Shown: positions 2,832 through 52,575 of the stretch, in pieces | Position numbering within the stretch: the stretch's first letter is position 1 | Layout of the letters: each line of letters begins with the position of its first letter | Source of the DNA: Methanobacteriota archaeon | GTDB taxonomy: Archaea > Halobacteriota > Syntropharchaeia > JAUWIL01 | Length of the DNA stretch: 52,575 bases | Reading direction: 5' to 3' | NCBI GenBank assembly: GCA_030605385.1 | Contig: JAUWIL010000001.1 | Span: 1-52,575 of the forward strand | The notes under the pieces: generated by a model | What the model was told of the DNA's origin: nothing | The model's database searches: none | What the model saw: only the letters and a program-made list of their open reading frames with translations | Program-made: the position numbers and the translations under genes

Positions 2832-3314
2832 ATGCCATACACAGTTTTTCTAAGCCATTGCACGAGTCCCGAGGATATGAAATATGTGAATTGGTTCGAT
2901 TCTACACTTAGAAATCAATGTATTGGGTGCTATGTTGCTGAATGGTATCGAGAGCCAAACAACCTTATAACAGACAAAATAAAAAACGCAATTAATGATA
3001 GCCAATGCGCTCTAGTATTATGGACGAAAAAAGGAAGAGGATCCCAATTCGTCAATCAAGAAGTAGGTTATGCTGAAGATAAAAAACTAATAATACCTCT
3101 TGTAGAAAAGGGAGTTCCATTAGGAGGGTTCCTTTATGGAAGGGATTGTATTGAATTTGAAAGAAACAATCCAACAGGAGCATTAAATAGTACCGTTGAA
3201 TATATCAATCAACTTAAGCTTGCCAAAGAGCAACAGGATATGGCAACGGGCATGGTTACTCTTCTCATTAGCCTTTTTACACTCGGAGGTCTACTTGCTG
3301 CAGCATCAAGGTAA
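2832..3314 (+). CDS. TIR-like domain protein with C-terminal transmembrane helix
   Basis: The N-terminus YTVFLSHCTSPED, then SQCALVLWTKKG...FVNQEVGYA...KLIIPLV, matches the TIR/DUF1863 layout (strand-SH start, conserved W/E helix). The last ~25 aa (GMVTLLISLFTLGGLLAAA) are hydrophobic. GGAGGTGA RBS lies 8 nt upstream. Confidence 0.6.
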   Translation: MPYTVFLSHCTSPEDMKYVNWFDSTLRNQCIGCYVAEWYREPNNLITDKIKNAINDSQCALVLWTKKGRGSQFVNQEVGYAEDKKLIIPLVEKGVPLGGFLYGRDCIEFERNNPTGALNSTVEYINQLKLAKEQQDMATGMVTLLISLFTLGGLLAAASR

Positions 3315-4461: not shown

Positions 4462-4977
4462 CTAGTTCCTCCCTCTCTCTTTTGCAATAGCTTCTTGTAT
4501 CATTCTTTTAACCCTATCTTCATCCTGATTAATATCATCTTCATTGAACCACAGAACCTTCCACCCCCTCTCATTTAGTGCGTTCTCCTTCCCCGCATCT
4601 CTTTCTTTTGCATGCCAGTAGTCAGCGCCAGGCTCTATAGCAACTTTTTCGTTTACAAATGCGAAGTCGATCCAATATCTTGAAACATTGTACTGCTTTT
4701 CGTAATCCTCATGTTCTTTGAAGCACAGTTCGTTTAGATATTGCTCAGTCCTTTTTTCCAAGTCTGTGTCTTTTTTTGATGGCGGCACTACTTCTCGTTC
4801 AAAACGAACTTCATCTACTACAAAATTTAGTTCACAGTCTTGACAAGTTACTATGAAAGGAGGCTTCTGCTTAAGATAAAGGTTAAAGATGTTATAATAT
4901 CTCATACATTTTGGACATTTTGTCCACAGGTTCGTCCCACCGCCTATGTACGCAATACTTTTCATCATCTCTACCAT
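4462..4977 (-). CDS. Zinc-ribbon plus DUF559 (Vsr-like endonuclease fold) protein
   Basis: CPKC...CQDC zinc ribbon at the N-terminus. The C-terminus YWIDFAFVNEKVAIEPGADYWH...RDAGKENALNERGWKVLWFNEDDI matches the DUF559 pattern (Y.vDF...IE.DG..H...D..R...L...G..vlRf). Confidence 0.6.
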   Translation of the reverse strand: MVEMMKSIAYIGGGTNLWTKCPKCMRYYNIFNLYLKQKPPFIVTCQDCELNFVVDEVRFEREVVPPSKKDTDLEKRTEQYLNELCFKEHEDYEKQYNVSRYWIDFAFVNEKVAIEPGADYWHAKERDAGKENALNERGWKVLWFNEDDINQDEDRVKRMIQEAIAKERGRN

Positions 4978-5822: not shown

Positions 5823-6293
5823 ATGATGAAACGGAAGTTTAGAGTATACATAGACACGTCGGTCATCGGGGGATATTTAGACGAGGAGTTTAAAGATGCT
5901 TCAACGATGCTTGTTGGAAGATTTAAGAGAGGGGAGCTTGGAGCAGTAATCTCAGAGATCACCAAACTTGAATTGAAAAAAGCACCCAGCGATGTGCAGG
6001 GTGTGCTTAAAGAAATACCAGAAGAAAATATAGAGTATGTTGAACTAACCGATGAAGCAACAACCTTGGCTAAGGGATACGTATCTGACGGTGTATTGGA
6101 TGAAAACAAAATTGCAGATGCACAGCATATAGCCATCGCTACAGTTCATAATGTAGATCTGATTGTGAGTTGGAATTTTAAACACATAGTCAACATTAAT
6201 AAAATCAGAGGCTTCAATGCGGTAAACTTGAAAATGGGCTATCCACTAATAGATATAAGAAGCCCTCAGGAGGTGATATCCTATGAAGAATAA
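5823..6293 (+). CDS. PIN-domain protein (VapC-like toxin)
   Basis: YIDTSVIGG (first acidic residue), ISEITKLE, ADAQHIAIA and the SWNFKH C-terminal motif follow the PIN-domain spacing. Confidence 0.6.
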   Translation: MMKRKFRVYIDTSVIGGYLDEEFKDASTMLVGRFKRGELGAVISEITKLELKKAPSDVQGVLKEIPEENIEYVELTDEATTLAKGYVSDGVLDENKIADAQHIAIATVHNVDLIVSWNFKHIVNINKIRGFNAVNLKMGYPLIDIRSPQEVISYEE

Positions 6294-6482: not shown

Positions 6483-6881
6483 ATGTCACAAAAAGGTTGG
6501 TATTATAATCCCCCCAAGCCAAAGGTTCCTGAGGTAGAAAAAAACAGGATTAAGAGCATTTGTGGTGAGTATATTAGGACTGTTTTAAAACCTAAACATA
6601 TAATCCCCAGCCCCTCACATAAAGAGTATTATCATATTGAAGATATGTTTACAAAATGGTGGCGGAATTACTTTTATTTTTATGCCAAATACCATTATAC
6701 AGATCCAAATGCAATTAAGGAGTTTTTAGATCATGGCTTTGCCAGATTGGAATATGTTAATGAACACAGGTTCAATTTATCGTATATGAGACATACAGGA
6801 CAATGGTGGGAGGTTTTTTCAGAATTATCATTGGAAGAATGCTTAGACACCATCGAAGAAATGCCACATTTTAATCCATAG
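6483..6881 (+). CDS. Hypothetical protein, DUF3024-like
   Basis: Clean 132-aa ORF. The W/Y-rich core and the C-terminal GFARLEY...W.L.YMRHTGQWWEV...L.E.L..IEE resemble DUF3024 as I recall it. Not verified. Confidence 0.4.
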   Translation: MSQKGWYYNPPKPKVPEVEKNRIKSICGEYIRTVLKPKHIIPSPSHKEYYHIEDMFTKWWRNYFYFYAKYHYTDPNAIKEFLDHGFARLEYVNEHRFNLSYMRHTGQWWEVFSELSLEECLDTIEEMPHFNP

Positions 6882-13500: not shown

Positions 13501-13705
13501 TACCTCTAACGTATTATCCTTCTTTCTCTCACGTATTACCCTTCATTAATACTTCTCGCATCATGATACCTTATGTCCTGCATCGTTAACCTGTTTTTCA
13601 GTATCCGATTGAAGATGGTATGTATCCGATTGAAGATAGTGTCACTCATTTATGTACCACCTTTACCAATCCAGCATCGCTTATTACTCCACCCTTATGT
13701 TGCAT

Positions 13706-14404
13706 TCAAATCTCCACCTTCAGATCCTGCGAAACGGAGTTTCGCGGGACAGGCGAAAGCTTTGCTTTCGACAAGGTCCTGCGAATGTCAAGCTCGTTAT
13801 GTACTACTATCATGCAGTGGTCCACATGCAGTGATTTTTGTCCGACGCTTACATTTCTTGCACAGGCATCTGCAAGGAGCCGCTCATATTCTTCACCAAG
13901 TCCCATATGGTCGCCAAGCACGAAAATCAGTTTATCACCCATCTCAATTTCTCTTATCCACTCGCCTGTTTCAACAAGATATATTATATCTGTGCCGTCA
14001 CCGCACCCTTCCAGCACATCCTTCATGTCCCCTTTACGTATGTATACGCCAGGAGTTGACAATATTTCATGCTCGGTGATGTTCTGCCTTCCAAGCGCCT
14101 TGCTTATCAGCGAGGCTGCGCTTCTTTCATCCGGGCTGAGATATCTCAGCTCACTGCCTTCAAAGCGTATCAGGATCGGGGGATTTGGCTCTCCGAGCAG
14201 CAGAAGCCAGAGTCTTGTATCTCTCCGTATATCGTGCGACAGAAAGAACGCTGAATTGACGCACCTGCATACTATATCCATCCTGCCGGCTGAACCTGGG
14301 AGGTCTTTCAGGCTGAAACCGCCGGTCGTAGTAGCTGTGCTGCTAACCACCAGAAATTCCCTTCTAACGCCCTCTCCCCTAACACCCATGTTGATCTCAC
14401 TCAC
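13706..14404 (-). CDS. trmY: tRNA (pseudouridine54-N1)-methyltransferase TrmY (SPOUT)
   Basis: GRMDIVCRCVNSAFFLSHDIRRD...LSPDERSAASLI matches TrmY/DUF358. The last ~28 codons are encoded by family B repeat sequence. Confidence 0.7.
   Translation of the reverse strand: MSEINMGVRGEGVRREFLVVSSTATTTGGFSLKDLPGSAGRMDIVCRCVNSAFFLSHDIRRDTRLWLLLLGEPNPPILIRFEGSELRYLSPDERSAASLISKALGRQNITEHEILSTPGVYIRKGDMKDVLEGCGDGTDIIYLVETGEWIREIEMGDKLIFVLGDHMGLGEEYERLLADACARNVSVGQKSLHVDHCMIVVHNELDIRRTLSKAKLSPVPRNSVSQDLKVEI
13725..13790 (+). repeat. Family B hairpin array (2 to 3 hairpins) overlapping the trmY 3' end
   Basis: TCCTGCGAAAC GGA GTTTCGCGGGA, then CAGGCGAAAGC TTT GCTTTCGACAAG, then a truncated GTCCTGCGAA. 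Confidence 0.8.
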
Positions 14405-14622
14405 TTAAACCGCTTAAATCCACCGCACTGCACAGCTCGTATGCAATATGTGCAATATCACAGTATTATTATGTGTGGCTGACCTCTTTTTAACCCACAA
14501 CAAGTATATAGGTTATCATATAGCCCATAGATTGGCACATAGACTAACATATAAACGGTATTTTGTTAAGATTTTGATACACCCCTGAACATTTAGTATT
14601 CGGATGAGCGCTTGATGTTAGG

Positions 14623-20172: not shown

Positions 20173-20538
20173 ATGGGCATACTGGGCGGCGGTGAGGAGT
20201 ACAAACAGTGCATAGTCGTCAGAGATGATATAAAACTCTCTCGCGGCAAAACAGCGGTTCAGGCAGCTCATGCGGCAATACTCGCATACAACAACGCGGG
20301 CAGAACTGAACGTTCGAGGTGGATGAACAGCGGTCAGAAGAAGGTCGCACTTAAAGTAGGCACGCTGGAAGAGCTGAGGGGGCTTGAGAGGAAAGCAAGA
20401 AAGGTGAAAATCCCTTGTGCAATTGTTGTGGATGCAGGTCTTACCGAGGTGCCCCCTGGCACGGTGACGGCTCTGGGCATTGGACCTGCGAAATCATCGC
20501 AGCTTGATGCCGTGGTTGGGCACCTTAAACTTCTGTAG
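20173..20538 (+). CDS. pth2: Peptidyl-tRNA hydrolase, archaeal Pth2 type
   Basis: KQCIVVRDDIKLSRGKTAVQAAHAA...AIVVDAGLTEVPPGTVTALGIGP. The ATG at 20173 is chosen inside the TTG-initiated ORF. Confidence 0.85.
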   Translation: MGILGGGEEYKQCIVVRDDIKLSRGKTAVQAAHAAILAYNNAGRTERSRWMNSGQKKVALKVGTLEELRGLERKARKVKIPCAIVVDAGLTEVPPGTVTALGIGPAKSSQLDAVVGHLKLL

Positions 20539-20688
20539 ATTTCTGTGTTGCTGTGGTGCCCCACAAAGAGGAGGAACTTGGGCAGAGTATAAATGCTATT
20601 ACAGCAAGAGATATATTTCGCCACCATAATAGAGGGGGCATAATAAATAGAGGTACAACTAGGATAAATAGGAGTGTGAGATAAAGTT

Positions 20689-20994
20689 ATGAACGATAAG
20701 CAGGATGATGCACAGCAAGGTCCCATAAGCACCATACTTAAAGGCGTCGACGAGATAGGTACGAGGCTCGACAGTCTGACCGAAAAAGTCGTGGATCCCA
20801 TAAAGGAAACTGTTGACCTCGCGATTAAAGATGTTAATGAAATGCTAAAAGAAGTGATCGCTAGAGTGCCTAGTCTGTCCGATCTTGTCAGTGAGATTGC
20901 AGACAAAGAGATGGAGGCTGAACTCAGCTTCAATGACCTGACGTTATCAGGGAGCGTATCATTCAGGGCGGCCCCACTGAAAAAGATGAAATAA
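20689..20994 (+). CDS. Hypothetical protein
   Basis: Clean ORF whose stop abuts the next start (TAA then ATG). No domain recognised. Confidence 0.45.
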   Translation: MNDKQDDAQQGPISTILKGVDEIGTRLDSLTEKVVDPIKETVDLAIKDVNEMLKEVIARVPSLSDLVSEIADKEMEAELSFNDLTLSGSVSFRAAPLKKMK

Positions 20995-21414
20995 ATGGAT
21001 ATGGATCCAATACGATTTCTGGATAATATAAGCAGTGGCTCCGTAAGTCTGACGCTCAAGGAGGATGGAGGCAGCCTTGGCTCTATAACCATATCTAGAA
21101 ACGATATATCCATTGATATACGGAGTGCACGCAGGCTTTACAGGTATGCAAAGATTTTCGGCGGCGCGCCGCAGCTCCACCATGATGGAGAGAGTGGTGA
21201 TGAGGAGGGACGGCAGGCAATCAAAGAAATATCAGCGCTAATGGAAATACACGGCAAAACGCTGCGTCTGAAATACCGGGGATACGAGGTCCTGGAGCTT
21301 GGAAAGGAGTCAAAGCCCGGTCTGGTTGGAAAAGTTATGAAAAAGGTTGTGGTTGACGCGCCTCCCGAGCTGGACAGAGTTATCAACATCATACTGTCAA
21401 AGTTCAAAGTATAG
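20995..21414 (+). CDS. Hypothetical protein
   Basis: Starts at the nucleotide after the stop of the upstream ORF. No domain recognised. Confidence 0.45.
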   Translation: MDMDPIRFLDNISSGSVSLTLKEDGGSLGSITISRNDISIDIRSARRLYRYAKIFGGAPQLHHDGESGDEEGRQAIKEISALMEIHGKTLRLKYRGYEVLELGKESKPGLVGKVMKKVVVDAPPELDRVINIILSKFKV

Positions 21415-31427: not shown

Positions 31428-31460
31428 TTTCCTTCCTCATCTAATTCATATTTTTTACAT

Positions 31461-31838
31461 GTATGAAATGCGAAGCATGTCCGAAAACCTTAGGTTTTCG
31501 TACTGTTGCGGAACTTCGTTCCGCAAACATGTCTGGAAGCGAAGCTTCCATACGGTTACAGAGCTCCGCTCTGTAAACATGTTTAAAAATCTTTGATTTT
31601 TAAACGGTTGAAAAACTACGTTTTTCAAACATGTCTAAAAGTGGAACTTTTAGACTGTTATGGAACTTTGTTCCATAAACATGTCCGAAAACCTTAGGTT
31701 TTCGTACTGTTGCGGAACTGCGTTCTGTAAACATGTATGAAAAGCTCTGCGTTTCATACGGTTATGGAGCTGTGCTCCATAAACATGTTTAAAAATCTTT
31801 GATTTTTAAACGGTTGCAAAACTACGTTTTGCAAACAT
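31461..31838 (+). repeat. Family A double-hairpin array: one truncated plus seven complete 50-52 nt units
   Basis: Units start at 31476, 31528, 31578, 31630, 31680, 31732 and 31784. Every junction reads AAACATGT. Confidence 0.9.
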
Positions 31839-31873
31839 TCCAATCTCTCACTTTTTACATTCCAATCTCTCAC
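31836..31873. repeat. Direct repeat CATTCCAATCTCTCAC x2 separated by TTTTTA (part of a 22-nt tandem duplication)
   Basis: Read directly. It covers the dys stop codon. Confidence 0.9.
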
Positions 31874-39967: not shown

Positions 39968-39995
39968 AATATGGGTGTAGCAATATGGGTGTAGC
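39968..39995. repeat. Perfect tandem duplication, 2 x 14 nt (AATATGGGTGTAGC) covering the cofE start codon
   Basis: Read directly. Confidence 0.9.
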
Positions 39996-40743
39996 CGAGA
40001 TTCGCTTATTTGCTCCTGAGGAAGTCCCTCTGATAAAAGAGGGGGACGACATAGTCGATATCATACTCGACGCAGTGGAACTCAAGAGTCATGATATAGT
40101 AGTAATTGCATCAACCATAATGTCCAAGTCTGAGGGTAGAGCTATTTCCCTCGATAGTATCAGACCGTGCGCCAGAGCGGTTGAGCTTGCATCGAACCTG
40201 AACGAAGACCCGAGATTCATGGAGCTTGTTCTGCAGAACAGCCGCAGAATAATAGTCGAGCGCCCCATACTTCTGACCGAAATGCCGAACGGGTACATAT
40301 GCATCAAGGCAGGTATAGACAGGTCCAACGTCAAGGATGGTAAGGCACTACTGCTCCCCGCTGACCCTGATAAGAGCGCGAAAGGTATACACGACCGGAT
40401 TCTCGAGCGCACCGGAAAGAGGGTGAGCATAATAATATCAGACACATCAGGCAGAGCCTTCCGCATGGGTCAGACCGCAGTAGCCGTAGGGTGTGCGGGC
40501 ATTGGTCCGCTGCTGAACTGGGTCGGAATGAAGGACCTTTACGGGCACGAGCTTGAAATAACAGAGGAAGCCGTGGCTGATGAACTTGCAGGCGCATCAA
40601 ACCTGCTCACAGGCGAGGGCAACGGCGGTAAACCCATAGTAGTGGTGCGCGGATTAGACCTGTACTCGGATTCACATGGTGTTGCGGCACTACACCGCAA
40701 AGACGAGGATGATGTAATAAAGAGGGCTTTGCTGCATGTTTAA
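39985..40743 (+). CDS. cofE: Coenzyme F420-0:L-glutamate ligase
   Basis: IKEGDDIVDII..., IKAGIDRSN, IISDTSGRAFRMGQTAVAVG. The stop codon lies inside the first family A repeat unit. Confidence 0.85.
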   Translation: MGVAEIRLFAPEEVPLIKEGDDIVDIILDAVELKSHDIVVIASTIMSKSEGRAISLDSIRPCARAVELASNLNEDPRFMELVLQNSRRIIVERPILLTEMPNGYICIKAGIDRSNVKDGKALLLPADPDKSAKGIHDRILERTGKRVSIIISDTSGRAFRMGQTAVAVGCAGIGPLLNWVGMKDLYGHELEITEEAVADELAGASNLLTGEGNGGKPIVVVRGLDLYSDSHGVAALHRKDEDDVIKRALLHV

Positions 40744-40966
40744 AACGCAAGGCATTTTAGACGGTTGTGAAATCTCTGATTTCACAAACATGTCTGAAAA
40801 AGCAACGCTTTTTCATACGGTTACAGAATCTTCGATTCTGCAAACATGTTTAAAATGCAAGGCATGTTCGAAAACCTTAGGTTTTCGTACTGTTGTAGAA
40901 CGTAGTTCTACAAACATGCCTAAAACACTACGTGTTTTATGCTGTTGCAAAACGTAGTTTTGCAAA
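40735..40966 (+). repeat. Family A double-hairpin array: four complete units and one truncated unit
   Basis: Units start at 40735, 40789, 40845 (18-nt stub), 40863 and 40915. Confidence 0.9.
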
Positions 40967-41007
40967 CAGGAGAAAAGATGAAGTAAAAAAAAGTGGTGAT
41001 AATATTC

Positions 41008-41541
41008 ATGAGCGGCGCCAGAGCCAGACGTCTTGAAAGCGACTATAAGCGCATGTGCGAACTCGATAAAAGCAGTAATTTCATCTCTTTTGCCTGCGAG
41101 GGGGACCCGCCAGAGAAATATGCAGTCACCTTCAGATGCAAGGGCATTATGAAGCGCGACGACGGCAGTCTAGCGAATTCCGTCCGCCATACTCTCGAGA
41201 TCTACCTGACGATGGATTATCCGATGCGCCAGCCCCAGTTGAAGTGGATGACTCCCGTATTTCACCCGAACATACTGGGCGCCACGCACCCATACAACCC
41301 GGGTACCGTGTGCCTCGGAAGCTGGGTGCCTTCCATGTTTCTCGACGACCTCTGCATAAAGCTGGGCGAGATGATTCAGTACAAAAATTTCAGCCTGAAC
41401 AGCCCACTGGATGCCGAGGCTGCGGTATGGGCAAACAAGTTCAAGCTTTCGATGCCAGTCGATGATCGACCTCTGCTGTTAGGCAGCGCCGAAAAATGCG
41501 ATGGTGAGGGCGATGATGAGTTTGACATAATAGTAGAGTAA
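41008..41541 (+). CDS. Ubiquitin-conjugating enzyme E2 (UBC fold)-like protein
   Basis: N-terminal ARRLESDYKRM helix, ...PEKYAVTF..., YPMRQPQLKWMTPVFHPNI......GTVCLGSWVPS: an HPN triad, a catalytic-position Cys and the following W.P, in the canonical E2 order. Confidence 0.7.
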   Translation: MSGARARRLESDYKRMCELDKSSNFISFACEGDPPEKYAVTFRCKGIMKRDDGSLANSVRHTLEIYLTMDYPMRQPQLKWMTPVFHPNILGATHPYNPGTVCLGSWVPSMFLDDLCIKLGEMIQYKNFSLNSPLDAEAAVWANKFKLSMPVDDRPLLLGSAEKCDGEGDDEFDIIVE

Positions 41542-41911: not shown

Positions 41912-42802
41912 ATGGCTAAAAATACAGGGGAGTTCAAGGGAACCGATAAATACTATCTTTCACCCGAGCTTGGCGACATAGTCAACATAGCGCTTGCAAT
42001 GGAGAAACCTCTGCTCCTGATGGGTGAGGCCGGAACGGGTAAGACGCAGCTGGCTTTCGAAGTGGCGAGAGCGCTTAACATGCCCATAGAGGTTGCCAGA
42101 TGCAAATCTACAATGAAAGGGGAGGAGCTGTGCTATACCCACGACTCTGTACTGCGCCTGTACGACTCGCGGTTTGGGTCAGGGGAGACGGGACGCGTGG
42201 TTGATAATTTTGATGATTACTCGATATACGGTCCCATAGGCAGGGCATTCATTTCAGAGGAGCGGTGCGTACTGCTGCTCGACGAGATTGATAAGACCGA
42301 GTCAGACGTGCAGGACAATCTCCTTGACGTGCTGGAAGAATGTGAGTTTACCATACGCGAGGTGAACCGCACCATCAGGGCAAAACACCGTCCATTCATA
42401 TGTATAACAAGCAACGCCAAACGCGAGCTCTCTGACCCGTTCCTGCGAAGGTGCTACTGCCATTACATCGACTTTCCCACGGTCGAGCAGATGAAAAAGA
42501 TTATCAGGCTTCACTACCCGGTGGTGAACGAGGGAGTTGTAAACACCGCCATAAGCCTGTTCTACGACCTTCGGGACCGCGGGTTCGAGAAGCCGCCAGC
42601 AAGCAGCGAGCTTCTGGATTGGATAGGTGCGCTCGATAGATCCGGAATTCGTGCAGATAAGCTTGCCTCTGCCAAGAATGACCCCAAAAAACTGCCGTTC
42701 TCTGGCGTACTGCTGAAGCGGGCTGGCGATATCAAGATGTTTCGCGAAGGGCGCTCTGGAAGTGCCTCTGATGGCTACCGCCGTATGCGATATAGATATT
42801 AA
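41912..42802 (+). CDS. MoxR/CoxD-like AAA+ ATPase
   Basis: Walker A GEAGTGKT, Walker B LLLDEIDK, sensor and arginine region SNA..ELSDPFLRRC. Confidence 0.8.
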   Translation: MAKNTGEFKGTDKYYLSPELGDIVNIALAMEKPLLLMGEAGTGKTQLAFEVARALNMPIEVARCKSTMKGEELCYTHDSVLRLYDSRFGSGETGRVVDNFDDYSIYGPIGRAFISEERCVLLLDEIDKTESDVQDNLLDVLEECEFTIREVNRTIRAKHRPFICITSNAKRELSDPFLRRCYCHYIDFPTVEQMKKIIRLHYPVVNEGVVNTAISLFYDLRDRGFEKPPASSELLDWIGALDRSGIRADKLASAKNDPKKLPFSGVLLKRAGDIKMFREGRSGSASDGYRRMRYRY

Positions 42803-42864
42803 TGGTATGGGCATTAAATATTGAATCAATTTTAATTTAGACCGGTTGCTGTTGAGGCGGTTCC

Positions 42865-44076
42865 ATGCTGTTCACTGATTTCTTCTACACAATGAAAGAG
42901 TACGGCGTACCCATTACGACGCAGTATATCCTCGAATTTCGGGAGGCTGTGGAAAAGGGACTTGCCAGCAATCTGGAAGAGCTGTACCTGCTGCTCCGCC
43001 TCATATGCGTGAAGCGCATAGAACACATGGATAGCTTTGAAAGAGCGTTCGCAAAATACTTCTACAATCTGGAGCTGCCAGCACCCGAGGATACTACGAA
43101 CCTCGGCAAACTTCTCGAGAACAAGCCGTTTCAGGATTGGCTGAACCGGGAACTCAAGAAGGGCAACCTCACGTGGGAAGATATTCACTACAGGATGCCT
43201 CCAGATGAACTATTCAAGCGCTTCATCGAGACCGTGATGAAACAGATGGATGCGCATCACGGCGGTGATAAGTGGATCGGAACGAACGGAAGTTCGCCAT
43301 TCGGTCATTCCGGTACCAGTCCATACGGCATCCGCGTGTACGGAGATTCAGCCTATCAATCCGCAATAAAGATGATAGGTGAGAGGCGGTATGCAGATTA
43401 TTCAAGCAAGGCTGAACTGCGCGCAGAAAACGTGCGCCAGGTACTTGGAACCCTGAAGAATATGGTACCTGCAGGACCCGTGACTGAACTCGATCTGGAC
43501 GAGACCATATACCGCACCGCCCGCAACGGGGGTGAGATAGAGATGGTTTTCACGGGTGAACTGCGTGATAAAATCAAGGTAGCCCTGCTTATGGATAATG
43601 GCGGTTATTCGATGGACCCATATATGAGACTCATAAAGCTGGTTTTCTCAAAAACGGCAGACCGCTTCAAGGAGTTAAGCACATATTATTTCCACAACTG
43701 CATATATGGTACCGTGTTCACAGATGCCGCGCGGAGCAAGCCATATCCCATGGAGAAGTTTCTCACGCATAATGCCGAGACGCGCGTTATCATCATCGGC
43801 GATGCGTCAATGGCTCCCGAGGAGCTGATGATGCCAAACGGCGCGATAGATTATGGTGTTGATGACGGGGAGCCGGGACGGGTGTGGCTTGAGCGCATGC
43901 GGGATAGATTCAGGTACTGCGTGTGGCTCAACCCGAAACTAAAAGAAGATTGGTACATGACGCACGGCAGCCATACAATTGACATTATCGGCAGGATCAT
44001 ACATATGGAAGACCTCACTCTTGAGGGCATAAAGAACGCTGTAGAATATTTGAATGCCCAGAAGCAGGCGGTATGA
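42865..44076 (+). CDS. VWA domain-containing CoxE-like protein
   Basis: N-terminus MLFTDFFYTMKEYGVPITTQYILEF, typical of the CoxE-like family. C-terminal VWA-like region (LLMDNGGYSMDPY...IIIGDA). Canonical partner position after MoxR. Confidence 0.65.
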   Translation: MLFTDFFYTMKEYGVPITTQYILEFREAVEKGLASNLEELYLLLRLICVKRIEHMDSFERAFAKYFYNLELPAPEDTTNLGKLLENKPFQDWLNRELKKGNLTWEDIHYRMPPDELFKRFIETVMKQMDAHHGGDKWIGTNGSSPFGHSGTSPYGIRVYGDSAYQSAIKMIGERRYADYSSKAELRAENVRQVLGTLKNMVPAGPVTELDLDETIYRTARNGGEIEMVFTGELRDKIKVALLMDNGGYSMDPYMRLIKLVFSKTADRFKELSTYYFHNCIYGTVFTDAARSKPYPMEKFLTHNAETRVIIIGDASMAPEELMMPNGAIDYGVDDGEPGRVWLERMRDRFRYCVWLNPKLKEDWYMTHGSHTIDIIGRIIHMEDLTLEGIKNAVEYLNAQKQAV

Positions 44077-44275: not shown

Positions 44276-44360
44276 GTTAGTATCGGGTTGTTAGTATCGG
44301 GTTGTTAGTATCGGGTTGTTAGTAGTAATGAAAATCGGTTCCTGGTAATCGGTTCCTGGT
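44276..44360. repeat. Two adjacent tandem repeats: about 3.5 x 14 nt (GTTAGTATCGGGTT), then 2 x 14 nt (AATCGGTTCCTGGT)
   Basis: Read directly, upstream of the CorC/HlyC-family gene. Confidence 0.9.
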
Positions 44361-51628: not shown

Positions 51629-51728
51629 CAACATCTGGCGATAATAATCAAATGGATAATCGAATGGTAATAATTGAATGATAACATATATATCTTAGAT
51701 AATACCACATGATGCTGAGGTGAATATT

Positions 51729-52235
51729 ATGGGAATACCTTTTCCTTCAAAAGAGTGGATGTCAGCAGGCATGGAAGCTATAAATTCTAATGCAGAATAT
51801 GCAGAATCAGCCAAGAACTGGGAGGGAGACTTTCTGCTGGTGATTGAACCTGATGAAGAGCTACAGATGAAAATAGAAGCAGCTGAGAATGATCCTGAAC
51901 TCAAGAAGCTGAAGGATTCTATGTTGGCGGACCTGGGGTTCAGCGAAGATGACTTACAAACGACATATGCACACCTTGGCTTATTCCATGGTAAATGCAC
52001 TGCCTTGAACTTGCTGAGTGAGAGTGAGAAAGACAACGTGGAGGTAGCATACAAATTAAAGGGTCCATACGCATCATGGGAAGCTCTGGTTAAAGGCGAG
52101 ATAGGTGTGATAGCAGCGGTCATGCAGGGCAAGCTGGAACTCGAAGGTGATATGACCCAGATCGTTGCAGATGCAGATGCAGCCGTAAAGGTGATGGAAT
52201 CACTCCAGAAAGTCGAGACCGACTTCTTGTCATAA
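51729..52235 (+). CDS. SCP2 sterol-binding domain protein
   Basis: C-terminal AAVMQGKLELEGDMTQIV is the SCP2 hallmark. The ATG at 51729 is chosen inside the GTG-initiated ORF. Confidence 0.6.
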   Translation: MGIPFPSKEWMSAGMEAINSNAEYAESAKNWEGDFLLVIEPDEELQMKIEAAENDPELKKLKDSMLADLGFSEDDLQTTYAHLGLFHGKCTALNLLSESEKDNVEVAYKLKGPYASWEALVKGEIGVIAAVMQGKLELEGDMTQIVADADAAVKVMESLQKVETDFLS

Positions 52236-52380
52236 AAGTGAACGACAGACCAAGAATCAGACTGAGACTTATTAAGGTGCACTTGTCCTGCAAACGGAAC
52301 GTGGGCCAAGAGCGCCCCCATAATATTTGAATGGCATTTTTTCTTACGACGCGTGAGACGTTGCGAGTTCCAATTTGATT

Positions 52381-52575
52381 CTATGATTTTTCCAAAGCAG
52401 CCGCATCGATCATAGCCATTATCTGCCCGTCCTTGAATCCTCTCTGCTGCATGGCACCGCTCGGGCATGCGCTCACACAGGTGCCGCATCCCTTGCACAT
52501 AGCAGCGTTGACGCTGGCTGTGCGCATGCCGTCATCTTTAACATCCACGGTTATCGCAGAGTATGCGCACACGGG
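52381..52575 (-). CDS. C-terminal part of an iron-sulfur protein running off the window (HdrA-like 4Fe-4S tail)
   Basis: [15 protein letters not shown] cluster motif followed by GF.DGQI..MI. The 5' end lies beyond 52575. Confidence 0.4.

Follow-up and report, generated by a model that had tools for sequence, protein, structure and literature searches.

An unlinked UBC-fold E2 gene in an archaeal chromosomal segment and the operons of its relatives

Discussion of eukaryote-like tagging by E1, E2 and E3 enzymes in archaea usually centres on Aigarchaeota and Asgard, and SAMP with its E1-like enzyme UbaA was established from Haloferax. The stretch of DNA analysed here, called the window throughout, comprises 52,575 nucleotides of contig JAUWIL010000001.1 from an archaeon placed by GTDB in Halobacteriota, Syntropharchaeia. 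A first-pass annotation, made from the letters alone, had described in it a stand-alone gene for a ubiquitin E2-like protein with an intact active-site motif. The locus raises the question of whether the product is an E2 at all and, if it is, what such a protein would do in a place where none of its usual partners is encoded.

A UBC-fold E2 with HPN and cysteine intact

The reading frame is open from 40993 to 41541 on the forward strand, and its ATG gives a protein (MSGARARRLESDY...EFDIIVE) whose N-terminus, MSGARARRLESDY, aligns with the N-termini of its relatives in an alignment of 46 sequences. The GGTGAT upstream of this start is, judging by its letters and position, a candidate ribosome-binding site (Table 1). 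Every landmark listed in the first-pass annotation, from the RRLxxDY motif and the HPN block through a cysteine 14 residues further on, W.P and a helical C-terminus to an acidic tail, was found in that order in the sequence or in the predicted model. The RRLxxDY motif of helix alpha1 (R7-R8-L-E-S-D-Y13) is common to the aligned relatives; in eukaryotic E2s this helix is the one that binds E1 and E3. Within the HPN block (Y71-P72...P76...W80-x-T-P-V-F-H86-P87-N88-I89), Y71 is nearly invariant, and P72, P76, W80, H86, P87, N88 and I89 are identical in 46/46 sequences. Cys102 follows in GTVCLGSW, 14 residues past Asn88, and is itself followed by W106-V-P108.

Table 1. Coordinates of the E2 gene, its sequence landmarks and its neighbours in the window
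Feature	Position	Strand	Remarks
cofE, 5' neighbour of the E2 gene	39985..40743		265 nt before the E2 gene
Hairpin-repeat array, cofE-E2 interval	40735..40970	.	Surroundings only; no part of the E2 system
Recurrence of the same hairpin-repeat family	31444..31840		9 kb away on the same contig
Shine-Dalgarno-like GGTGAT	40994..40999	+	8 nt 5' of the ATG at 41008; read from the sequence
E2 (UBC/UQ_con) coding sequence	41008..41541	+	177 aa and stop codon; ORF, Pfam and model
Helix alpha1, about residues 5-22, RARRLESDYKRMCELDKS	41020..41073	+	DSSP helix at residues 3-22 of the model
YPxxxPxxxWxTPVFHPNI block with HPN triad	41218..41274	+	H86 at 41263-41265, P87, N88 at 41269-41271
Loop L90-V101 between HPN and Cys, LGATHPYNPGTV	41275..41310	+	6-residue insertion, specific to the archaeal clade
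Codon for Cys102, predicted catalytic thioester-forming cysteine	41311..41313	+	Invariant in 46/46; aligned with 4gpr
EFDIIVE motif, end of the acidic tail	41518..41538	+	Alignments; low model confidence
MoxR-type AAA ATPase gene	41912..42802	+	370 nt after the E2 gene
CoxE-like VWA protein gene	42865..44076	+	

The first-pass annotation had made its reading depend on a UBC fold and on conservation of the cysteine and the HPN triad. Both were borne out. None of H86, P87, N88 and C102 varies across the 46 aligned family members, and these four belong to a set of 12 invariant positions (Y38, P72, P76, W80, H86, P87, N88, I89, V101, C102, W106 and W141). An AlphaFold2 model of the window E2, built with 46 homologues, had a mean pLDDT of 90.5 and a pTM of 0.83, and its secondary structure runs in the UBC order (helix at residues 3-22, strands within 26-66, helices at 112-123 and 136-144), with the N-terminal helix, four-stranded antiparallel sheet and C-terminal helices that define the fold. 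When the model was compared with the PDB by Foldseek, the top 50 matches were all E2s (among them UbcH5, Ubc13, Rad6 and Ube2K) at a probability of 1.0, and target-normalised TM-scores to stand-alone E2 chains were mostly 0.62-0.71.

Sequence-based searches gave the same assignment. Pfam UQ_con (PF00179) matched with 36.4 bits against a gathering cut-off of 27, covering residues 40-140, and was the sole Pfam match at E<=1, with no Prok-E2 family reported. A phmmer search against PDB sequences returned E2 enzymes only (best E = 4.8e-6); the catalytic cysteine of the solved E2 4gpr aligned with Cys102, and the PDB sequence had a gap opposite the loop between HPN and Cys. The loss of the catalytic cysteine that marks a UEV, the catalytically inactive variant of an E2, is not seen here, Cys102 being retained and identical throughout the family. 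These analyses confirm that the window protein is a UBC-fold E2 with HPN and Cys intact. By analogy with the E2s of eukaryotes and of Caldiarchaeum, Cys102 would accept a ubiquitin-like modifier (Ubl) as a thioester in an E1-dependent manner.

Eukaryotic class I E2s (UbcH5/UBE2D, Ubc13/UBE2N, Rad6/UBE2A and Ubc1) share with the window protein not only the fold but also a YPxxPP-like motif, HPN, the cysteine and Trp-x-Pro. They differ from it in sequence (16-24% identity) and in the distance from Asn to Cys (8 residues as against 14), and the window E2 has shorter C-terminal helices and an acidic tail that ends in a hydrophobic motif. This tail is modelled with low confidence (pLDDT 48-61 in the last two 10-residue blocks, residues 161-177). 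Equivalent motifs close the tails of relatives (EIDVQILE, DFGINIL and EFDIVLS), and EFDIIVE may be a partner-binding peptide.

Relatives of the window E2 and their operons

A word-indexed protein search yielded 45 homologues, with E-values down to 1e-62 and UQ_con in every one. Among 1.84 billion cluster representatives, 1486 clusters matched at E<=0.001, 669 at E<=1e-10 and 15 at E<=1e-30, many of them with N- or C-terminal extensions; the family count of 669 refers to clusters at 50% identity and E<=1e-10. When one genome per GTDB species was scanned with the pattern T[PD]IFHPNI, outside which the TPVFHPNI of the window itself falls, at least 541 relatives emerged. The best match in that scan was Candidatus Methanoperedens sp. 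(57% identity) and the second an 'uncultured Halobacteria archaeon' (51%), and the rest were nearly all Chloroflexota, mainly Anaerolineae, Promineifilaceae and Ardenticatenaceae. A scan of JGI metagenomes for close orthologues gave none above 46% identity.

Most of the family comes from Chloroflexota, and a small clade, to which Candidatus Methanoperedens belongs, is archaeal. The window E2 is 53-57% identical to the operon-encoded E2s of this clade and 40-48% identical to those of Chloroflexota. The first-pass annotation had reported an insertion between HPN and Cys, and the alignments agree: the spacing from Asn to Cys is 14 residues in the window and the archaeal clade as against 8 in the Chloroflexota relatives and in eukaryotic E2s, because all archaeal-clade E2s have an insertion where the Chloroflexota members show a 6-residue gap. 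In a neighbour-joining tree the window E2 paired with P0002, its closest relative (62% identity), in 82/100 bootstraps. The two branch from within the operon-encoded archaeal E2s, beside P0003 and P0004, and the branch of the window E2 is slightly longer than those of its nearest relatives.

That prokaryotic E2-like genes normally sit in operons with their partners, as the first-pass annotation had stated, holds for this family. A YukD-like Ubl gene adjoins the E2 in about 120 related loci, and a ThiF-type E1 is usually present as well. When partner proteins were used as tblastn queries, a Ubl was found beside the E2 in 90/90 loci, with an E1 in 83/90 and a JAB protease in 78/90. In 37 further JGI loci, a YukD-like gene was seen in every locus with enough flank on the relevant side. 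The third type of partner is a JAB protease in bacteria and a RING protein in the archaeal clade. One distant member, on a 3.65-Mb contig, has a UQ_con paralogue, YukD, ThiF, UQ_con and JAB in succession, then two Prok-RING_1 proteins. Some bacterial E1s are fused to a GntR domain, and in the one bacterial case looked at (L001) the Ubl is extended at its C-terminus.

Within the archaeal clade, each of the closest relatives whose contigs are usable (P0003, P0004, P0006 and P0007; 53-57% identity) belongs to a ThiF-YukD-E2 cluster. Most of these clusters are followed by a gene for a protein of about 500 aa with a beta-propeller, PEGA and a C-terminal Prok-RING_1 finger, which is presumed to be the E3. 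By eye, this protein looks membrane-anchored. The archaeal-clade loci (L002-L012) are without JAB. In the four loci from which the Ubl was extracted, it is a YukD-like protein of 89 aa that terminates exactly in ...AG. Natural fusions of Ubl and E2 occur at two loci (P0004/L007 and L012), and a second E2 paralogue lies on the opposite strand at the Methanoperedens locus.

The operons of Candidatus Methanoperedens sp. (DATCUE010000129, L011) and of metagenomic contigs (L002-L010) encode E2s of the same subfamily as the window E2, with the same 6-residue insertion and tail motif. In them the E2 directly follows Ubl and E1 and mostly precedes the RING protein, unlike the window, where none of these partners lies within 52.5 kb. 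The window gene is not an isolated oddity; it has its place in a sizeable class of prokaryotic Ubl/E1/E2/RING/JAB systems that had been described before. Of the roughly 125 loci examined, just two have an unlinked E2, that of the window and that of P0002. Neither the complete operons of its own subclade in Methanoperedens-type archaea nor the unlinked state shared with P0002 could have been known to the first-pass annotation.

An unlinked gene in the window and in its sister lineage

Pfam scans of about 55 window ORFs, 10 small ones included, found no ThiF, YukD, JAB, beta-grasp or RING domain and no SAMP or UbaA gene. We also searched the 52.5 kb by tblastn with 23 partner proteins (E1, Ubl, RING, JAB and accessory proteins) from five operons, and apart from the E2 itself nothing scored better than E = 0.3. 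An Rfam scan of the window gave no match. The gene accordingly stands alone, as first described, and the adjacency of Ubl and E1 seen in its relatives is absent from the whole of the window. The remaining content is that of an ordinary archaeal chromosomal segment. The archaeal genes recognised by Pfam (CofE, an Mpt_N domain, NrpR, class I LysRS, Nre, Pus10, GatD, archaeal DnaG and deoxyhypusine synthase) agree with the earlier description of the genome as methanogen-type, and they are accompanied by KsgA, an XPD-type helicase, PyrF, SecDF, TrkAH, ApgM, a MoxR ATPase, a CoxE-like VWA protein and CNNM. Five window proteins were found among protein clusters, all five of them as singleton clusters.

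On its 5' side the E2 gene has cofE and then an interval filled with hairpin repeats (Table 1), the arrangement given in the first-pass annotation. Repeat-rich intergenic DNA beside a gene whose family is mostly from Chloroflexota could point to an artefact of assembly or binning, with a Chloroflexota E2 stitched into an archaeal contig. We consider this extremely improbable. The GC content (52.8%), GC3 (0.655) and codon-usage score (z = +0.8 against the other window genes) of the E2 match those of the neighbouring archaeal core genes, the gene falls within the archaeal clade and has the insertion of that clade, and the upstream repeat family occurs again elsewhere in the contig. Because its composition and codon choice are host-like, the gene is a long-term resident and no recent arrival.

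On the 3' side, the genes for a MoxR-type ATPase and a CoxE-like VWA protein lie next to the E2 on one strand, an arrangement that might be taken for a new functional unit of three genes. This is very improbable, given that the MoxR-VWA pair occurs without an E2 both in the closest relative of the ATPase (80% identity, L091) and in another archaeal genome (L092). Among the best 120 homologues of the ATPase, some of them from named archaea and bacteria, identity is 65-80%, and its best named matches are from Halobacteriota, Syntropharchaeia and Methanolliviera (68-71% identity). Moreover, a gap of 370 nt separates it from the E2, and the sister E2 P0002 has different neighbours. We therefore rejected the three-gene unit; the MoxR-VWA pair is an independent module that recurs without E2. 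A synteny check for an insertion between cofE and the MoxR gene found that the closest MoxR relative has different neighbours.

The state of the gene itself bears on whether it is still in use. One alternative is that it is an orphan relic, left over from a broken-up or partly transferred E1-Ubl-E2-RING operon, with its partners gone and no function in conjugation, and now in slow decay or drifting to another role. We regard this as possible but unlikely. All other relatives examined have the Ubl gene beside the E2, which suggests selection for co-location and makes an unlinked copy suspect; the lack of any partner gene inside 52.5 kb, the slightly long branch of the window E2 and a possible disruption of the 5' frame in P0002 point the same way. 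Set against this, the 177 codons are intact, all invariant residues are present and the partner-type C-terminal motif is retained, all signs of maintenance. Departures from conserved columns number 1/29, 3/40 and 4/52 at conservation thresholds of 90%, 80% and 70%, respectively, within the normal range of the family, and host-like codon usage implies long residence without decay. Purifying selection has acted overall: dN to relatives is 0.35-0.41, a measure in which the unlinked period is not separable from the operon period, and with dS saturated for all pairs, dN/dS carries no information.

The sister lineage provides a further argument. The E2 of P0002 (locus L093) is also unlinked, with no Ubl in the 250 nt upstream of it on a 1.4-kb contig and a convergent amino-acid-kinase gene downstream. 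That two lineages both keep an unlinked E2 counts against a relic. P0002 comes from metagenome run SRR25383458, which also yields the closest homologue of the window MoxR and an archaeal-clade E1 that is 57% identical to the E1 of Methanoperedens. This E1 retains the conserved upstream coiled-coil membrane gene of the operon, and neither a Ubl nor an E2 follows it in the 166 nt to the contig end; the presence of an unlinked E1 of the clade in the metagenome of the sister E2 is likewise at odds with a relic. With E1 (contig _441695), E2 (_245570) and MoxR (_66918) on three separate metagenome contigs, the pattern in this run is the one to be expected of a system that is complete but dispersed. 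The grouping of the window E2 with P0002, the unlinked state of the latter and the E1 and MoxR homologues in the same run thus argue for dispersal of the system rather than its loss.

P0002 has no canonical in-frame start 5' of the alpha1 helix, and an ATG with GGGAG lies in another frame. This anomaly could be a frameshift or an assembly error, and it could hint at decay in the sister lineage. A short fragment upstream of P0002 looks tRNA-like by eye, with no support from ARAGORN or Rfam.

A proposed cascade and its place among known systems

We hold, with moderate confidence, that the window gene encodes a working E2 and that the Ubl cascade to which it belongs has its genes dispersed, the partners being encoded elsewhere in the genome. 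These partners would presumably exist outside the window, and the E2 gene would presumably be expressed. Going by its archaeal relatives, the system would comprise a ThiF-type E1, an 89-aa YukD-like Ubl ending in ...AG, the E2 and the propeller/PEGA/Prok-RING_1 protein. The E1 would adenylate the C-terminal glycine of the Ubl and pass the Ubl on to the E2, where Cys102 would carry it as a thioester and the asparagine of HPN would support catalysis; the RING protein might then steer transfer of the Ubl onto lysines of target proteins. In the lineage of the window the linkage would have been lost, which would leave the E2 alone between cofE and the unrelated MoxR/VWA pair.

The mechanistic model for such a gene is the system of Caldiarchaeum subterraneum (Aigarchaeota) and Asgard, since a cascade of this type has been reconstituted biochemically. 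These archaea have an operon of ubiquitin, E1, E2 and a small RING protein together with Rpn11 (Nunoura 2011, PMC3082918; Hennell James 2017, PMC5654768), and the E1/E2/RING cascade of Caldiarchaeum has been rebuilt in vitro (PMC5654768). The likeness, by description, lies in a eukaryote-like cascade of three enzymes with a UBC-fold E2 that has HPN...Cys. The modifier differs: that of Caldiarchaeum and Asgard belongs to the true ubiquitin family and has a C-terminal pro-peptide cut by Rpn11, whereas that of the relatives of the window E2 is YukD-like and already ends in ...AG. The archaeal-clade operons also lack a JAB protein, unlike the Rpn11-carrying systems, and the phylum is different.

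Operons of the Ubl-E1-E2-JAB(-RING) type in Chloroflexota and other bacterial phyla were described by Burroughs, Iyer and Aravind (2011), according to the passages of PMC11601603 and PMC5654768 that cite that work. Their E2s belong to the same family as the window E2 (40-48% identity) and have the same invariant residues, and the Ubl is likewise YukD-like and the E1 of ThiF type. They differ in that the E2s lack the 6-residue insertion, a JAB is carried and, unlike the window gene, all are operonic. Conjugation of a Ubl in prokaryotes is also known from bacterial defence modules with E2-like proteins (CBASS Cap2 E1-E2 fusions, Bil and Bub). The archaeal-clade E1 matches the PADLOC 'E1-E2' (Cap2-type) models through its adenylation domain. 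The window E2, by contrast, matched none of the PADLOC or NCBIfam models and, as noted above, no Prok-E2 family, and no known defence context was seen around it.

The sampylation of Halobacteriota by SAMP and UbaA uses neither an E2 nor an E3 (PMC11354881, PMC12660748). Because archaea of this group have been reported to have SAMP and the E1-like UbaA (PMC12660748), and because no dedicated partner lies near the stand-alone E2, the protein might have been rewired, either co-opted into this otherwise E2-independent system (or a Urm1-like one) or kept as a non-catalytic, UEV-like binding module. Such a change of role seems to us improbable. The window offers no sign of SAMP or UbaA, sampylation works without an E2 (PMC11354881), a UEV-like binder would have no need of the cysteine and HPN that are kept, and the sequence is still typical of the operonic family. 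In the literature searched we found no published description of the archaeal E1/Ubl/E2/RING clade, and for these organisms only SAMP-type tagging and JAMM proteases. We consider the complete E1/Ubl/E2/RING operon subclade in Methanoperedens-type archaea, and the unlinked arrangement, to be mildly new.

A UBC-type E2 system with a YukD-like modifier and a propeller/PEGA RING protein is thus also found in Methanoperedens-type and related archaea. We would go further only with marked reserve. It is conceivable, though we think it rather unlikely, that a complete E1-E2-RING cascade is scattered chromosome-wide, as in eukaryotes, in a methane-cycling lineage of Halobacteriota or, more boldly, that the unlinked E2 is charged by the SAMP-activating E1 of the host. 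Were either the case, this would be a second archaeal setting, beyond Aigarchaeota and Asgard, for escape from operon organisation, and charging by the SAMP-activating E1 would link E2-independent sampylation with E2-dependent ubiquitylation. If the unlinked copy is a relic, it illustrates the decay of an operon and nothing more. An active copy would be an instance in nature of a cascade losing its operon linkage, and would also provide a small and tractable E2 with which to test the E1 and Ubl that it accepts.

Relatives of the window E2

In the sister E2 P0002, the closest relative of the window protein, the alpha1 helix KRRLENDY is encoded in the E2 frame (locus L093, 200-260), and upstream of this helix we found no ATG, GTG or TTG in that frame. 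The ATG preceded by GGGAG at this locus falls in a frame other than that of the E2 and is followed by a stop after 10 codons. This 5' end of P0002 reflects a frameshift or, alternatively, an error in the assembly.

Elsewhere in the archaeal clade, the Methanoperedens locus L011 encodes an additional E2 paralogue in convergent orientation to the operon. This paralogue shares 45% identity and the TPVFHPNI motif with the window E2. Two other loci encode natural fusions of a YukD-like Ubl to an E2 (Table).

Table. Features of the window and of related loci
Feature	Location	Strand	Remark
TIR/ThsB-like protein	window 2832-3314		low-GC island
DUF559 restriction-endonuclease-like protein	window 4462-4977		low-GC island
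PIN protein	window 5823-6293		low-GC island
DUF3024 protein	window 6483-6881		low-GC island
Long ORF	window 13620-14408	+	synonymous codon usage z = -3.0
Long ORF	window 20334-21113	-	synonymous codon usage z = -3.2
Long ORF	window 51695-52498	-	synonymous codon usage z = -2.0
Hairpin-unit array	window 31444-31840
Hairpin-unit array	window 40735-40970		between cofE and window E2
Tandem duplications	window 21814, 22675, 35740, 38415, 44276, 51593		also at other window positions
MoxR-type AAA ATPase and CoxE-like VWA protein	window 41912-44076		conserved two-gene module
Second E2 paralogue	L011 12030-12587	-	Methanoperedens
YukD-Ubl-E2 fusion	L012 9506-10444		natural fusion
YukD-Ubl-E2 fusion (P0004)	L007 2044-2856		natural fusion
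Coiled-coil protein	L132 1558-2184		hydrophobic C-terminal segment; upstream of E1
Coiled-coil protein	L007 114-581		hydrophobic C-terminal segment; upstream of E1

Repeats in the window

The hairpin-unit arrays have a period of 26/52 nt, with conserved linkers (AAACATG and ACGGTT/ACTGTT) and stems of 10-12 bp whose sequence varies from copy to copy while complementarity is kept. The window holds 12 occurrences of their core motif, where 0.87 would be expected by chance, and none of the 133 retrieved loci contains it; the arrays had no match in Rfam. They may represent a lineage-specific REP-like or structured-RNA repeat.

The window also contains numerous perfect short tandem duplications (unit 12-20 nt, 2 to 3.5 copies), several of which sit at gene ends or directly past them; one example is 3.5 copies of GTTAGTATCGGGTT at 44276-44324.

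A low-GC island and doubtful ORFs

Between ~2000 and 7200, GC content is 35-39%, compared to ~48-52% in the rest of the window; the segment probably represents a mobile or defence island. The three long ORFs listed in the table display aberrant synonymous codon choice, have Ser/Leu-rich translations and gave no match to Pfam. Probably these are not genuine genes, or the genuine gene lies on the opposite strand.

Genes neighbouring the E2 and E1

Across its best 120 homologues, among which both archaea and bacteria are represented, the MoxR-type ATPase downstream of the window E2 shows 65-80% identity, and the MoxR/VWA module matches MadB and MadC weakly in NCBIfam. At the locus of its closest relative (L091), a JAB/MPN gene lies directly downstream of the pair.

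Upstream of the archaeal-clade E1, the coiled-coil proteins of L132 and L007 are conserved relative to each other (33% identity, E = 1e-15) and belong to no Pfam family. The archaeal system may include this protein as a hitherto unrecognised accessory component.
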